Part shown: positions 40,334 to 46,113 of the stretch, one piece after another | How the letters are laid out: every line of letters begins with the position of its first letter | Numbering within the stretch: position 1 is the stretch's first letter | Assembly (NCBI GenBank): GCA_023255625.1 | Contig: JAHFLF010000001.1 | Span: 185,766 to 249,765 of the forward strand | From: Candidatus Harrisonbacteria bacterium | Lineage (GTDB): Bacteria > Patescibacteriota > Minisyncoccia > UBA6257 > 1-14-0-10-44-23 | Direction: 5' to 3' | Length of the DNA: 64,000 nucleotides | Notes under the pieces: generated by a model | Seen by the model: only the letters and a program-made list of their open reading frames with translations | Database searches by the model: none | What the model was told of the DNA's origin: nothing | Translations under genes and position numbers: made by a program

Positions 40334-41959
40334 ATGACGCTTACGATTACTGCGCTAAGTTTTCTCCTACTCTCTTCAGGACTGGCCTGCTGCGGCTGGC
40401 GATTTCTCGCTGCGCTTCGGCAAGCCAAAAACTCAACCGGACTGCACACTATCGGCCGGCTATTATCTGCATTATTCTTCCTATCGGCAACCTACAATGG
40501 CATCATCGGTCTTGGTTCTCTCTTCTTTTCAAAAAGCCCTAACGGGCTTTTTATTATTGCCATACTCGCACACCTTTTACTGACCGCTCTCGCTCTAGTT
40601 AGTGTCTTTACGGTTTATTACATCTTCTGGCCGAAAGATTCAGCGCGACTACTGCTCGGCACACTTGGAATGACTGGCAGCGCCGGTACATTATTTTATC
40701 TGACCGCGAAGCTCCGACCGTTTGTAACAACTGAACATAGCATAAACTGGAATCTGTCTCCGGGTCTTGCTCTTCTCACCTTCTGCCTGCTGACAATCAG
40801 TCTCTTGGCAACTTTATACATTTTTGCGCAGCTTTTCCGGAAAACAAATTCGCGCAGTTTAAAAACACTTTCTCTAATCTTTTCTGCACTCTCCTGCGCC
40901 AGCGTGTTATATGCAATTATCAAGCTGGCGACCTCTTTAGAAAATAATTTATTCTTCGGCCCGCTGATTGATTGGGCTCCCTGGCTGCTTGGGGCAAGTT
41001 TCCTAGTCTTAGTTGTGAGACGCCCCGCCATGCGCGCCACCATGATCATTTTCTTAGTCTTCCTTGGCTGGTGGGCAAGTTTCTATTTTGGATCAAATGA
41101 TCCGACCGTGAATAATGCAAACATTTACATATCAGCATGGTTCAATGTTTATACTCTGCTCGCACTCTGGGGCGTCTGGTGCGGATTTAAAATTGCAAAA
41201 AAACAAGGAGGATTTAGAAATGACTTTGGCAAAAGCATTGGGCTCTTTACGCTGGGGTTACTCTGCCAAGTTTTTGGACAAGTCACTTTCGGGCTTTACA
41301 ACAATGTCCTGAATGTCGCCCTCCCTTATCCATCACTGGCCGATCTTGCTTACATAGCCAGTCCAATCATCTATCTTTTGGCGCTCGTCCAATTCGGCCG
41401 CGCAGCGGGAATAAATTGGAATCTAAAATTAATGCGCGGCAAAATCTCGGCGACCGGCTTCTTTATCGGCCTGCTTAGCGTGTATTGGGCAGTACTGTTA
41501 TGGCAGGGCTATGCTTTTGACTTACAGCAACCGATTAAAATTATTCTGGACTTAGCGTATCCGCTGCTCGAAACACTTTTCCTGGCGGTGGGAATACTTG
41601 TGTATAGATCATACAGAAAAACTAAAATTAGCAGCCCGCTAACCAAAATTCGTTTTGTTCTAATCCTGGCGGCGCTGGGCATGCAATACTTGGCCGACGC
41701 ATTCTTCAGTTTTCTGGTGCAATCAAATAAATGGTCGGGAAACTCTTTCGGTGATCTGCCTTATTTTCTGGCGTATTTCCTGATGACGGTGGCCATTATT
41801 CACCTTGGCGACAACAAAAAACCTGTGCCGGCACAAGTTTCTCAAACAGAGGAGTTATCTCCTGGTTTCTATGTAAATCCAGGGAGAGCAACCGGATTTA
41901 ATCCGTTTTCCAATATCCTAGATTTTTTAAAATCTGTCCGAATAACTGAAAAAGCATGA
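40334..41959 (+). CDS. Hypothetical polytopic membrane protein (541 aa)
   Basis: About 14 hydrophobic helices. The N-terminus is paralogous to the downstream 242-aa protein. Confidence 0.55.
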   Translation: MTLTITALSFLLLSSGLACCGWRFLAALRQAKNSTGLHTIGRLLSALFFLSATYNGIIGLGSLFFSKSPNGLFIIAILAHLLLTALALVSVFTVYYIFWPKDSARLLLGTLGMTGSAGTLFYLTAKLRPFVTTEHSINWNLSPGLALLTFCLLTISLLATLYIFAQLFRKTNSRSLKTLSLIFSALSCASVLYAIIKLATSLENNLFFGPLIDWAPWLLGASFLVLVVRRPAMRATMIIFLVFLGWWASFYFGSNDPTVNNANIYISAWFNVYTLLALWGVWCGFKIAKKQGGFRNDFGKSIGLFTLGLLCQVFGQVTFGLYNNVLNVALPYPSLADLAYIASPIIYLLALVQFGRAAGINWNLKLMRGKISATGFFIGLLSVYWAVLLWQGYAFDLQQPIKIILDLAYPLLETLFLAVGILVYRSYRKTKISSPLTKIRFVLILAALGMQYLADAFFSFLVQSNKWSGNSFGDLPYFLAYFLMTVAIIHLGDNKKPVPAQVSQTEELSPGFYVNPGRATGFNPFSNILDFLKSVRITEKA

Positions 41960-42684
41960 TCCTCACCACTACCTCCACCGCCTTTCTGACACTCTCGGCT
42001 GGTTTGGCTTTTTGCGGCTGGCGTTTTCTGCGATGCTACCGGCAAACCGTAAAAAGCGCTAAAGGTAAAAAAATCGGCTCGCTGCTCGGCTACCTGTTTA
42101 TCGGTGCTGCTTTGCAAAATGCAATCATGGGCTTTGGCCTGCTTATTTTTGCGGAAAACTCGGCAGCGATGGCTCTGGTTCTGTTGCTTTGCAACATTGA
42201 GCTAACCCTCGTCGCCTTACTTGGCGTCTATGCCGCATATTATATATTTTCTCCGAAGGCATCTCCGTATCCGCTCATGACCGTCTCTGGGATAGTCGGC
42301 ATAATTGCATTTGTCGCGGCGATGGTTAATCCCCCAAACCCGTTTCTGACCCCTGCAAACGGCATTGATCTGAACATGAGCTTCCCTCTGGCGCTAGCAA
42401 CTTTTTATCTATTACTAATCAGCATCGGCGCAAACGGCTATATTTTTTCGCGACTTTATCTGACTGTAGCTGAACGAAAAACAAAACGGCTGGCCGGAAT
42501 ACTGGCGATTTTAGCGATAGCCGGAATCATCAATGTATTTATTCGGCTTGTGCTACTATCTGACTATTCGGCGGTCGGCCGAACGCAATCGCTAGACAGC
42601 GGGATAGCGCTCGTTGGTATCGGGTTTATTTTTGCGCTGGTCATCGCGCCAAAAATCCGCGACTGGTTTCCCAAAAAAATCTAA
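41956..42684 (+). CDS. Hypothetical membrane protein, paralog of the N-terminal part of 40334..41959
   Basis: MILTTTSTAFLTLSAGLAFCGWRFLRCYRQ vs MTLTITALSFLLLSSGLACCGWRFLAALRQ. Overlaps the upstream stop by 4 nt. Confidence 0.5.
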   Translation: MILTTTSTAFLTLSAGLAFCGWRFLRCYRQTVKSAKGKKIGSLLGYLFIGAALQNAIMGFGLLIFAENSAAMALVLLLCNIELTLVALLGVYAAYYIFSPKASPYPLMTVSGIVGIIAFVAAMVNPPNPFLTPANGIDLNMSFPLALATFYLLLISIGANGYIFSRLYLTVAERKTKRLAGILAILAIAGIINVFIRLVLLSDYSAVGRTQSLDSGIALVGIGFIFALVIAPKIRDWFPKKI

Positions 42685-42691
42685 AACCCAT

Positions 42692-42874
42692 CTAGAAAAT
42701 CTCCCTGTATTCGGTGCATTTATTACCGTCTTTATCTGTGTATTCCATCAGTTCGTAATCGCCAAACTCGCTGCGTTTACCCAAATGCCGCCAGTTGCGG
42801 CGCCGGAAAATTAAATGCATAAGTCCGCGCCGAAAATTCTTGACTGTTTTTGACAATTTTGAGGATAAATTCAT
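42692..42874 (-). CDS. Small hypothetical protein (60 aa) immediately downstream of a terminator-ended structured RNA
   Basis: MNLSSKLSKTVKNFRRGLMHLIFRRRNWRHLGKRSEFGDYELMEYTDKDGNKCTEYREIF. ATG lies 8 nt after the terminator U-run; the longer ORF (to 42916) is rejected. Confidence 0.3.
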   Translation of the reverse strand: MNLSSKLSKTVKNFRRGLMHLIFRRRNWRHLGKRSEFGDYELMEYTDKDGNKCTEYREIF

Positions 42875-42884
42875 AGAACAAAAA

Positions 42885-43095
42885 ATACTCCGCGGGGAGT
42901 ATTGGTAAAACGACAATTATCTCCCCTTTCGGGACCGAATTAGCACTTACTGCGGTTTTGCCGCAGAGTTGCTGGTGGTTAAGGGCCGGTTGCCCATGCC
43001 CAGTCGTGAGTTTCGCTCTACGCCGGGACCTGCCACGCTCTTGATAACTTATTTAGTTGTGTTTTCATTATATAATATATCGGTAAAAACGCAAT
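42885..43095 (-). ncRNA. Candidate structured non-coding RNA or riboswitch-type leader (about 185 nt; own promoter and intrinsic terminator)
   Basis: Minus-strand TTGCGT-16-TATAAT promoter (43067-43094), GC-rich core (rc of 42935-43060, contains cccGAAAggg GNRA hairpin and cugcggCAAAAccgcag), terminator tactccCCGCggagta + UUUUUU at 42885-42905. No match to RNase P/SRP/tmRNA motifs. Confidence 0.35.
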
Positions 43096-43147: not shown

Positions 43148-43753
43148 ATGTTTGCTATCTCGCTGGGCATCCTGTCCGGACTTTTACAAATTTACGGATA
43201 CATATTCTATGCTCGCAAGACAATTCTCGGCCACATTAAACCAAATACCGCCAGCTGGGGATTATGGGCTTTCGGCGCAGTCCTTGAGTCCGGCTCCTAC
43301 ATCTTCGCCACGGGCGACTGGGCAAAAAATATCCTGCCGGCCGCCTGCGCTTTATCGGCGATCGCCTTTTTCTTTCTGGCGCTCTATAAGGGCCATTTCC
43401 GAAAGCTAGATTCATTCGAGTACTTAATTATCACCCTCGATCTTATAGCAATTTTAATCTGGTGGTACACTGAATCTGCGCTCTACGCCAACATTTATAT
43501 AGTTCTGACTGCGGTTATTTCCTTTATTCCGATTTTCCGACATGCCTGGAAGAACCCCGAGCAAGAAGATGCTGGCCCGTGGTTTATCTGGACCTGGGCC
43601 TATGCCCTGCTGACGGTAATAGTTATTTTAAACTTTACCATCTGGCAAGAATTGATTTTCCCGGTAACTTATATTTTCCTTTCGCTAACCCTAGCAATCT
43701 TATCTTTAGATAGCAGAATCCCGAAAACATTTTCATTCAGACGACTTCAATAA
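43148..43753 (+). CDS. Hypothetical integral membrane protein (6 TM)
   Basis: 201 aa, hydrophobic. No family recognised. Confidence 0.5.
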   Translation: MFAISLGILSGLLQIYGYIFYARKTILGHIKPNTASWGLWAFGAVLESGSYIFATGDWAKNILPAACALSAIAFFFLALYKGHFRKLDSFEYLIITLDLIAILIWWYTESALYANIYIVLTAVISFIPIFRHAWKNPEQEDAGPWFIWTWAYALLTVIVILNFTIWQELIFPVTYIFLSLTLAILSLDSRIPKTFSFRRLQ

Positions 43754-43757
43754 TTTT

Positions 43758-44261
43758 ATGAAAAAACCTGTTCTATCAAATGGTTACAAGAAAATACTCC
43801 CACAAAAAAGCCGCATCGAAGGTACCGGCATTCATGCAACAAAATCTTTTAAAAGAGGCGAAACGATTTTTATATTCAACGGGGATCCTATCCACTGGGT
43901 TGTGAAGGATCAAAAAACATCTTTGGCAGGCCCCAATTGGGTCGGCTTTAAAAAAGATACCTGGATCGTAGTCAAAGCTCCGGGTATTTATCTAAATCAC
44001 TCCTGTAAACCAAATGCGGGCATCCAAGGAGCAAAAAAAATTGTCGCCCTTCGCCGAATCAAGGCCGGCGAAGAAGTTACGATTGATTACTCTATTACTG
44101 AAGAAGATCCGCTCTGGTATATGAATTGCCTGTGTGGCGAACCGGACTGCCGCAAAAAAATCCGATCTATACAAAGTCTCCCAATTGCCGCCTTCAAACG
44201 CTATCTCCCGTTCGTGCCTACATATTTTAAAAAGGTTTATTTGAAGTATACTGAAAGATAA
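43758..44261 (+). CDS. SET-domain protein (putative protein-lysine methyltransferase)
   Basis: GIYLNHSCKPNAGIQGAKKIVALRRIKAGEEVTIDY (SET motifs NHSC and ELxxDY-like) and CLCGEPDCRKKI (post-SET Cys cluster). Confidence 0.7.
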   Translation: MKKPVLSNGYKKILPQKSRIEGTGIHATKSFKRGETIFIFNGDPIHWVVKDQKTSLAGPNWVGFKKDTWIVVKAPGIYLNHSCKPNAGIQGAKKIVALRRIKAGEEVTIDYSITEEDPLWYMNCLCGEPDCRKKIRSIQSLPIAAFKRYLPFVPTYFKKVYLKYTER

Positions 44262-44436
44262 TGATTACTAAATCCTCAAAATTATTCTTTTTAGCACTCT
44301 TAATCCTCGTCTTATTTTCTGTAGCGCTTACTTTTTATAAAAAAGTTGTTCTCCACGATTTTAATTATCTTACTCCAGAAGAAGTAAAGCCTTCTACAGA
44401 ATCCCTGATATTCAACAACGAATAAAATTAATTTTT

Positions 44437-46113
44437 ATGGAAACGATTCAAGCGCTGATCGCCGCCTGCCAGTGGGATACCTCCCAATTTTTCATAATTT
44501 CCAAAAATGTTTTCGATCCTTTTATTTACTACTCTCACCTTTTACCGCTTGGCTTATCCATAATTTTAGGCGGATTCGTTTTTATAAAAAATCCGAAGTT
44601 GATGACATCCAAAATTCTTTTTTTTATAACAGTAATTTTTTCTATTTGGGTATTTTGCGATTTGGTTACCTGGGCAACAGAAAAACCGCCCATAACAATG
44701 TTTTCTTGGTCAATTTTAGTCATAATTGAACCGCTGATTTATGCTGCATGTCTTTATTTTGTCCAAATTTTTATAAACGGGAAAGACACGGAACTTTGGA
44801 ATAAAATACTGATTGGCATTCTACTGCTGCCAACTTTCCTTCTGGCCCCAACCGGCTTATCTTTGCCAGCATATGACCTGACAAATTGCGATCGCAGCGC
44901 CATCGAAGGACCGCTTGCGCAGTATGGTTATATTATTGAAATTCTCTTCACGCTCTGGATAGTAGTCATCGCCATGGAAGCATTCAAAAAGACAAAGGAT
45001 CGGGAGTCGCGTCAAAAAATCGTACTCGTAACAACCGGTATACTTTTGTTTCTGCTTACATTCTCTTGGGGTAATATTGTCGGCGCTCTTAGCTCATCCA
45101 CTGATTGGCGCCTCCCCCAATGGGGTTTATTCGGTATGCCACTTTTTATAACTCTTTTGGGATATTTAATCGTCAAATTCAAAACTTTCAATATTAAGGT
45201 TTTGGCTACTGAAGCTCTGATCTGGTCTCTTTGGATTATGATCGGCTCAATCCTGCTCATTGCAAAAACTACTCCAACAAAAATTGTTACCGGCGTTACC
45301 GAAATCCTGGCTATTATCTTCGGTATCATGCTGATCCGCAGCGTCCGCCGCGAAGTTAAACAGCGCGAACAGCTGGAGGTGCTGACCCAGGAACTGGAAA
45401 AGAAAAATATTAAGCTCAAAGAACTTGACGAGCAGAAGAGTCAGTTTCTATCCTTCGCCAGCCACGACTTAAAATCACCGATGAATATTATCAAGCAGTT
45501 TTCTGCCCTGATAATTGATAAAACTTATGCCGCGCCGGAAAAAATCATGGAGACGGTTGTAAAAATAAGAAATAATGCCGAACGAGGCATCCGATTGGTT
45601 GATGACTTTTTGGATATTCGTAAGATCGAGGAGGGCAAAATGGAATATAATTTCGAGAAGAAAAACTTGGTCGTGGTTGTTCGCGAACTAGTTGAAGAGT
45701 TCCGCGTGCTGGCAATGGAGCAAAAGAAAATCGATGTCAGTTTTACCAGCAATCAGCAGAAAATTCCGGCGATGCTTGATGTGAATCGGTTTAATCAGGT
45801 CATTCAAAACCTCCTTTCCAATTCCCTGAAATATACTGAAGCCGGCACTATTCAGGTTGATATTGTCGAGGAACAAAATTCTGCATTAATTACTGTAAAA
45901 GATACCGGCATTGGAATTAGCAGCGAGGTTCTGCCAACTCTTTTTGAACAATTCCGCCGGGCCCCGGGAGTCGCGAAAAAAATCCAAGGCGTTGGTTTGG
46001 GACTATATATTTCCAAACAGATTGTACTTGGTCATGGCGGAGAAATTTGGGTTAGTTCCGAGGGGGCCGGGCATGGATCTACATTTTCCGTCAGAATTAA
46101 AAAAGCGGCCTGA
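44437..46113 (+). CDS. Membrane-bound sensor histidine kinase (multi-TM sensor, HisKA, HATPase_c)
   Basis: About 8 TM helices, coiled-coil, H-box LSFASHDLKSPMN, N/G-boxes LLSNSLKYT, DTGIGIS, GVGLGLYISKQIV. Confidence 0.8.
   Translation: METIQALIAACQWDTSQFFIISKNVFDPFIYYSHLLPLGLSIILGGFVFIKNPKLMTSKILFFITVIFSIWVFCDLVTWATEKPPITMFSWSILVIIEPLIYAACLYFVQIFINGKDTELWNKILIGILLLPTFLLAPTGLSLPAYDLTNCDRSAIEGPLAQYGYIIEILFTLWIVVIAMEAFKKTKDRESRQKIVLVTTGILLFLLTFSWGNIVGALSSSTDWRLPQWGLFGMPLFITLLGYLIVKFKTFNIKVLATEALIWSLWIMIGSILLIAKTTPTKIVTGVTEILAIIFGIMLIRSVRREVKQREQLEVLTQELEKKNIKLKELDEQKSQFLSFASHDLKSPMNIIKQFSALIIDKTYAAPEKIMETVVKIRNNAERGIRLVDDFLDIRKIEEGKMEYNFEKKNLVVVVRELVEEFRVLAMEQKKIDVSFTSNQQKIPAMLDVNRFNQVIQNLLSNSLKYTEAGTIQVDIVEEQNSALITVKDTGIGISSEVLPTLFEQFRRAPGVAKKIQGVGLGLYISKQIVLGHGGEIWVSSEGAGHGSTFSVRIKKAA

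Follow-up and report, generated by a model that had tools for sequence, protein, structure and literature searches.

A SAM-I riboswitch variant with an extra helix in P2 probably controls a small-protein gene in a Candidatus Harrisonbacteria bacterium

SAM-I (S-box) riboswitches (RF00162), among them those of T. tengcongensis metF and B. subtilis yitJ, are built on a P1–P4 junction with conserved core strings and a pseudoknot between the P2b loop and J3/4, and act as OFF switches whose terminator and antiterminator use the 3′ strand of P1/P4. A k-turn in P2 has been described as conserved in the class (PMC2258182), and exchange experiments have put a kinking element of unrelated structure, the pk-turn, in its place with SAM binding kept (PMC3672288, PMC4316175). 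A related elaboration is the k-junction of the TPP riboswitch, in which an extra helix is placed on the non-bulged strand (Wang, Daldrop, Huang & Lilley 2014, PMC4005666). SAM-IV (RF00634) and SAM-I/IV (RF01725), of clan CL00012, join a SAM-I-like binding core to an altered periphery, with a changed P4 and a different pseudoknot. In a literature search of incomplete coverage, we found no description of a natural three-way junction in SAM-I P2 or of a SAM riboswitch from CPR/Patescibacteria.

Here we analyse a 64-kb stretch of DNA (the window; positions below are counted from its first letter) from a Candidatus Harrisonbacteria bacterium, in which a GC-rich RNA on the minus strand precedes a 60-aa ORF. 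This RNA is very probably a SAM-I riboswitch that switches off transcription of the 60-aa gene. It resembles the described SAM-I riboswitches in its P1–P4 junction, core strings and P2b–J3/4 pseudoknot, and would follow the same OFF logic. Unlike them, it has a three-way junction with a 29-nt helix (the T helix) in place of the k-turn, scores below the Rfam gathering cut-off, and stands before a gene for a 60-aa protein instead of a methionine or SAM gene. Like SAM-IV and SAM-I/IV, it couples a SAM-I-like core with an altered periphery, but whereas P4 and the pseudoknot differ in those classes, P3, P4 and the pseudoknot are canonical here and only P2 is changed.

Read directly from the minus strand, the locus (43094..42880) runs from a promoter-like site through the GC-rich structured RNA to an intrinsic terminator, after which comes the 60-aa ORF. 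The promoter-like site (43067..43094, −) consists of a −35 element TTGCGT (43094–43089), a 16-nt spacer and a −10 element TATAAT (43072–43067), as the first-pass annotation of this DNA had proposed. The −10 element is a perfect consensus; the −35 element agrees with TTGACA at just three of six positions, so the site did not appear in the list of a consensus scan. As a consensus match, it is treated here as a putative promoter, from which transcription would start near 43060. The A/U-rich start and GC-rich structured core described in the same annotation are likewise present, and the 186-nt RNA folds better than its dinucleotide shuffles (MFE z = −2.78). The terminator of that annotation was recovered by the consensus scan (42880..42903, −): an 8-bp stem, AAUACUCC-CCGC-GGAGUAUU (42903..42884), is followed by U6 (42885–42880). 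The ORF also stands as annotated (ATG at 42874, stop at 42692), with the correction that the U-run ends 5 nt, not 8 nt, before the ATG. The 3′ arm of the terminator carries the sole Shine-Dalgarno-like sequence, GGAG (42891–42888), which lies 13 nt before the ATG, a long gap for such an element.

Across the whole 64-kb window, a search with Rfam at gathering thresholds returned nothing at the riboswitch site; its sole match was a LOOT RNA elsewhere (RF03000, 315–432, +, 79.4 bits, E 2.6e-13). The window yielded no genes for tRNA or rRNA. The Rfam/Infernal scan that had been suggested as a check did return a match when E-value reporting was applied to a 551-nt region: RF00162 aligned over its full length (model 1–108, at 43050..42914) with 34.5 bits and E 4.8e-6, below its gathering cut-off of 44.4 bits, and was the best-scoring member of its clan at the site by cmscan. 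The score falls short of the cut-off because a 43-nt insertion in P2 replaces seven model positions. A leave-one-out covariance model (R2), made from 25 other CPR aptamers with a T helix and with the window sequence excluded, scored the window aptamer at 63.7 bits (E 1.9e-14 over 69 kb), and this SAM-I aptamer was the only such match in the 64-kb window. Other identities were considered and set aside. SAM-IV and SAM-I/IV were rejected on the presence of P4 and a SAM-I-type pseudoknot and on RF00162 being the best clan match; 6S RNA, SRP RNA, RNase P RNA and tmRNA gave no Rfam signal, in agreement with the earlier reading that motifs of the last three are absent, and its remark on a 6S-like length proved irrelevant. 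A weak sucC RNA match inside the ORF (E 4.6) was judged to be chance.

The aptamer as delimited with RF00162 and R2 spans 42913..43051 (−) and comprises P1–P4, the pseudoknot and, within P2, the T helix. The 5′ strand of P1, AGUUAUC (43043..43049), pairs with GAUAAUU (42921–42915), and that of P2a, GUGG (43033..43036), with CCAC (42978–42975). The T helix (42999..43027) is a 29-nt hairpin, CCCGGCGU-A-GAG-CGAAA-CUC-ACG-A-CUGGG, that separates P2a from P2b on the 5′ strand of P2. Folds of the P2 region give P2b as the hairpin GGGC-AACCG-GCCC (42983..42995), from whose loop ACCG (42990–42987) forms the pseudoknot with CGGU of J3/4 (42937–42934); this ACCG/CGGU pairing is the window's own compensated version. 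J2/3 and P3 follow (42942..42973), as AGCAAC, the hairpin CUGCGG-CAAAA-CCGCAG and AAGUGCU, with the GCAAC and GUGC core strings intact, and P4 is the hairpin CCC-GAAA-GGG (42924..42933), on which the Rfam alignment, folding and pairing across the family agree. The three hairpins that the first-pass annotation had named are therefore real, being P3, P2b and P4. The core strings UUAUCAAGAG, GCAAC, GUGCUAAUUC and AGAUAA are all intact, and the strings of the four-way junction (AUCAAGAG, GCAAC, GUGCYAAUUC and AGAUAA) are all present. In the T. tengcongensis structure, the positions that contact SAM are the U's of P1 (UUAUC), the G of AAGAG, the C, A and C of GCAAC, the UG of GUGC and the AU of AGAU; every one of them is retained in the window aptamer. 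We infer that this aptamer binds SAM.

P2 itself departs from the SAM-I norm. Its 3′ strand reads CCC-UUAA-CCAC and its 5′ strand GUGG-CAG-[T helix], with no GA on either strand. The k-turn signature, which is GA in the 5′ and NNNGA in the 3′ strand, is missing, and with it the 3-nt bulge and tandem G·A pairs between P2a and P2b. Most of the 43-nt insertion that cmscan reports is the T helix, in agreement with minimum free energy folds; the helix turns the kinked P2 into a three-way junction at the usual k-turn site. This junction presumably bends P2 so that the P2b loop can reach J3/4, a three-dimensional role that we predict for the T helix. [quoted passage not shown]

By position, the T helix agrees with the definition of a k-junction (PMC4005666): the k-turn of SAM-I carries its bulge on the 3′ strand of P2, opposite the 5′, non-bulged strand that bears the T helix. 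Unlike the TPP k-junction, however, the window and most of the T-helix class do not, by sequence, have the tandem G·A pairs. The trans sugar-Hoogsteen pairs 1b·1n and 2b·2n are missing from the window, whose junction was for this reason rejected as a k-junction. GA occurs on both strands in 7 of about 50 distinct T-helix aptamers (L010, L026, L040, L060, L093, L095 and L098), which look like k-junction candidates, while the junction of the window and of the majority of the class probably achieves the same bend by other means.

SAM-I cores with an over-long P2 were sought in one genome per species, which yielded 64 loci, and similarly in metagenome contigs, which added 30; a narrow DNA pattern, meant to pick up close kin of the window aptamer, had no match in the metagenome collection. 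Isolated folding of the P2 segment yielded the P2a/T/P2b junction in every insertion variant. About 25 distinct T-helix aptamers came from CPR/Patescibacteria MAGs (Saccharibacteria, Paceibacterota, Falkowbacteria, Colwellbacteria and Microgenomates) and about 27 from Ruminiclostridium/Oscillospiraceae, so that the three-way-junction P2 is seen in about 50 other aptamers of CPR and Clostridia, with support from covariation. When 25 CPR aptamers were aligned with MAFFT alone, RNAalifold recovered P1, P2a, the T helix, P2b and P3. Covariation among relatives had been named beforehand as a test of the structure, and it is borne out over 88 distinct aptamers. With a covariance model (R1), 91 aptamers were aligned, and pairs were counted on the 88 distinct ones with the pseudoknot added: 92.2% of cells were paired, against 75.6% in shuffles and 35–46% when partners were slid, and the covariation score was 0.371 against 0.133 in shuffles, a value reached by none of 500 shuffles. 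P1 pairs were 92.7% paired; covariation was found in all four P2a pairs and in three of the four pseudoknot pairs, and all four basal pairs of the T helix showed compensatory changes, in 16–21 cells each. Two features of the alignment bear on these counts. It sets the window P2b 1 nt off register, since the hairpin has 13 nt and not 12, and seven Gastranaerophilales aptamers, which carry their hairpin in J1/2, are forced onto its T-helix columns; these seven were left out of the T-helix count.

Of 18 insertion variants tested, 9 reached the RF00162 gathering score and 9 fell below it. The T-helix class thus straddles the Rfam annotation threshold.

Among the CPR T-helix aptamers, metK was the most usual downstream gene, found at 11 distinct loci (with Pfam confirmation for L041). 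Elsewhere in the class, the aptamer precedes genes for a homocysteine S-methyltransferase (L096), a SpoU methylase (L040) and a weak SAM hydroxide adenosyltransferase-like protein (L098). These associations bear on the ligand. An altered P2 could in principle reshape the binding pocket, and the target gene in the window is uncharacterised, so the variant might sense another molecule, such as SAH or a further SAM-related metabolite. We give this idea hardly any credence, as the nucleotides that contact SAM in the T. tengcongensis structure are all retained and the class lies upstream of metK and homocysteine S-methyltransferase, a classic SAM regulon. The retained contact positions, together with the CPR loci upstream of metK, make it highly likely that the T-helix class senses SAM.

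Several further arrangements were seen in the survey. In two CPR loci (L025, 2517–4181, −; L113, 1380–3023, +), a T-helix riboswitch directly precedes proteins of about 550 aa with major-vault-protein domains (MVP_shoulder, Vault repeats and SPFH/Band 7), which are unexpected as the products of a SAM-regulated gene. At L101 (23–1643, +), the riboswitch is followed by a 52-aa zinc-ribbon ORF and then by a queuine tRNA-ribosyltransferase gene (TGT, PF01702). Proteins of 122–125 aa with no Pfam match stand behind T-helix riboswitches at L014 (6070–6444, +) and L085 (1213–1578, +) and may be a second family of uncharacterised SAM-regulated CPR proteins; at the former locus, the opposite strand also carries a DUF3800-V RNA, some 240 nt upstream of the aptamer. 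At L086 (9443–10630) and L103 (2754–3722), the T-helix aptamer and its terminator are followed, about 15–60 nt on, by a second, bidirectional-looking terminator, and then by some 0.7–1 kb with no convincing gene before rny (RNase Y). The gap at L103 holds a Cys-rich 98-aa ORF with a good Shine-Dalgarno sequence, and Rfam gave no further match in the gap before rny at L086.

Extra hairpins also occur at other sites in the aptamer. Three loci (L032, 7445–7596; L094, 1539–1672; L108, 1481–1617) carry one in the 3′ strand of P2, after P2b, and the last two of these lie upstream of metK. Nine loci (L023, L027, L028, L038, L053, L084, L088, L097 and L111), from Gastranaerophilales and related bacteria, combine a normal k-turn with an extra hairpin in J1/2, between P1 and P2; the downstream gene, checked at L088 and L097, is metK at both.

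In the window, the aptamer is joined to an expression platform of the SAM-I kind, which has two competing folds, antiterminator and terminator, and uses the 3′ strand of P1. An antiterminator (42894..42926, −) can form by pairing of GGGGAG (42926–42921), which is the 3′ strand of P4 plus the start of the 3′ strand of P1, with CUCCCC (42899–42894), the 5′ arm of the terminator. According to ViennaRNA, the antiterminator (−15.0 kcal/mol) and the combination of P4 and terminator (−14.9 kcal/mol) are near-isoenergetic, and a nascent RNA that ends before the 3′ arm of the terminator adopts the antiterminator fold. We propose that, at high SAM, the four-way-junction aptamer with its pseudoknot would bind SAM and lock P1 and P4, thereby sequestering GGGGAG and leaving CUCCCC to pair with GGGAG in the 8-bp terminator followed by U6. 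Transcription would then stop 5 nt before the start codon, and the same hairpin would bury the sole SD-like GGAG, so that translation would be masked as well. At low SAM, the GGGGAG–CUCCCC antiterminator would allow the polymerase to read through, and the small protein would be made.

Under this scheme, a terminated leader RNA of about 175 nt would be made at high SAM. This RNA could itself be the functional product, a trans-acting sRNA beside which the ORF is incidental, which is how the SAM riboswitches SreA and SreB of Listeria are reportedly used, and the discrete promoter-to-terminator unit and the expected accumulation of the terminated RNA at high SAM would suit such a role. An antiterminator would be pointless for a constitutive sRNA, however, and the ORF is conserved together with the riboswitch in a second genome, as set out below, so that we regard an sRNA function as very improbable. 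Of the two readings that the first-pass annotation had offered, neither of which named a ligand class, the one in which a riboswitch and its OFF terminator precede the ORF is thus upheld by the SAM-I aptamer, the competing folds and the unit kept in a second genome, while the independent sRNA is not needed by the evidence.

The regulated gene, the 60-aa ORF MNLSSKLSKTVKNFRRGLMHLIFRRRNWRHLGKRSEFGDYELMEYTDKDGNKCTEYREIF (42692..42874, −), has no known link to SAM or methionine. It gave no match in Pfam or NCBIfam, and a word-indexed search of 5.8 billion proteins found only the ORF itself. An exhaustive phmmer search of 1.84 billion representatives returned a single small homolog, P0034 (58 aa, E 9e-5), which in pairwise comparison (E 3e-13) is 42% identical over 43 residues and ends in the same way at the C-terminus. 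The other phmmer matches were to '..YEVTDSDGNK..' repeats in large surface proteins and were discounted as motif-level similarity; no homologs of the small protein were found in the fetched loci, viral contigs or PDB sequences. The 60-aa ORF and P0034 make up a new two-member family of small proteins. An AlphaFold model of the small protein is weak (pLDDT 62) and suggests an N-terminal basic helix and three strands, and a Foldseek search of the PDB with this model gave no match at E < 1.

The contig of P0034 (L114) carries a SAM-I riboswitch and terminator directly upstream of the P0034 gene. Its aptamer scores above the gathering cut-off with RF00162 (51.0 bits; 50.9 bits with R1) and has a standard k-turn P2 with no T helix; over their 3′ halves, this aptamer and that of the window hardly differ. 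The L114 leader has the same arrangement of antiterminator and terminator, with a U-run that abuts the ATG. Compared across the two loci, the riboswitch and the small gene are a conserved, orthologous unit, for which L114 is the one other contig. This conservation argues for the 60-aa ORF as a genuine, SAM-controlled gene, and we predict that it is translated and that the protein would be needed when SAM is scarce. Since the orthologous L114 leader has a standard k-turn P2, the comparison also argues that the T helix is a lineage-specific insertion.

The window locus lies in a region of variable synteny, and a tblastn search downstream of the riboswitch found no metK or metK remnant in the window. 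Together with the score below gathering and the loss of the k-turn signature, this could point to a decaying relic, a former metK-type riboswitch cut off from its gene by rearrangement and no longer able to bind SAM. Decay would hardly be expected to leave the core strings, the compensated ACCG/CGGU pseudoknot, P1, the terminator and the antiterminator all intact, however, and the loss of the k-turn with gain of a T helix is a recurrent, covarying architecture shared by the majority of some 50 aptamers, many of which precede metK; the model of that class gives the window aptamer the 63.7 bits stated above. A relic is thus extremely improbable, and we retain the reading of a working SAM-I switch on the small gene.

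On the other side of the small ORF, the stop codon of a convergent 242-aa gene (41956–42684, +) lies 7 nt from its end, and the next minus-strand terminator lies at about 39619, some 3 kb on. At L114, a convergent gene begins 6 nt past the small ORF. Given this spacing and the ~3 kb of the window with no such terminator, any read-through transcript must overlap the convergent gene and would be antisense to it, and the riboswitch might chiefly gate antisense RNA or transcriptional interference, with low-SAM read-through into the convergent 242-aa and 541-aa genes. In the ubiG operon of Clostridium acetobutylicum, an S-box is said to control an antisense RNA. The convergent genes of the two loci are not homologous, though, while the small ORF is conserved as a protein with an identical C-terminal end, and searches near homologs of the 242-aa gene in other genomes found no riboswitch. 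We therefore consider it unlikely that antisense control is the main function; as the two convergent genes are unrelated, it would be a side effect at most of a switch that serves the small gene.

The surrounding genes were as follows. Behind a TrmB-type regulator, the plus-strand region 40334–42684 encodes two paralogous membrane proteins, of 541 aa (40334–41959) and 242 aa, whose N-termini are alike. In the closest relative (the P0018 contig), a 243-aa homolog is followed by a co-directional S-adenosylmethionine decarboxylase gene (PF02675). Upstream of the riboswitch, a plus-strand cluster (43148–46113) encodes a 201-aa membrane protein with no Pfam match, a SET-domain protein (PF00856), an ORF of about 50–62 aa and a histidine kinase. 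This cluster starts divergently, 54 nt from the −35 element of the riboswitch, and recurs in at least six related contigs (L002, L005, L006, L009, L078 and L082) with differing upstream neighbours. No riboswitch was found next to homologs of the 201-aa gene in the relatives.

Taken together, these results describe a known riboswitch class in an architectural variant for which we found no description in literature that was incompletely covered. The broadest reading is that T-helix aptamers are an undescribed SAM-I subclass, common in CPR/Patescibacteria and in some Clostridia, in which a three-way junction has taken the place of the k-turn or, in a few members, is an elaboration of it, that Rfam misses about half of those checked, and that the window copy controls an unrecognised family of 58–60-aa proteins, with a basic N-terminal helix and a small β-sheet, made only when SAM is scarce. 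For this reading as a whole, we put the chances for and against at about equal.

As about half of the insertion variants checked score below Rfam gathering, the annotation of SAM regulons is incomplete in CPR bacteria and in some Clostridia, and a dedicated covariance model recovers the insertion variants at 60–120 bits. The T-helix class is also a natural experiment on how a k-turn can give way to, or be built up into, a three-way junction with the long-range pseudoknot and ligand pocket preserved. Native riboswitches are being sought as genetic tools in Patescibacteria (PMC11665869). A small protein that is predicted to be induced by SAM starvation, and that is kept together with its riboswitch, would offer a handle on SAM economy in ultrasmall, host-dependent bacteria.
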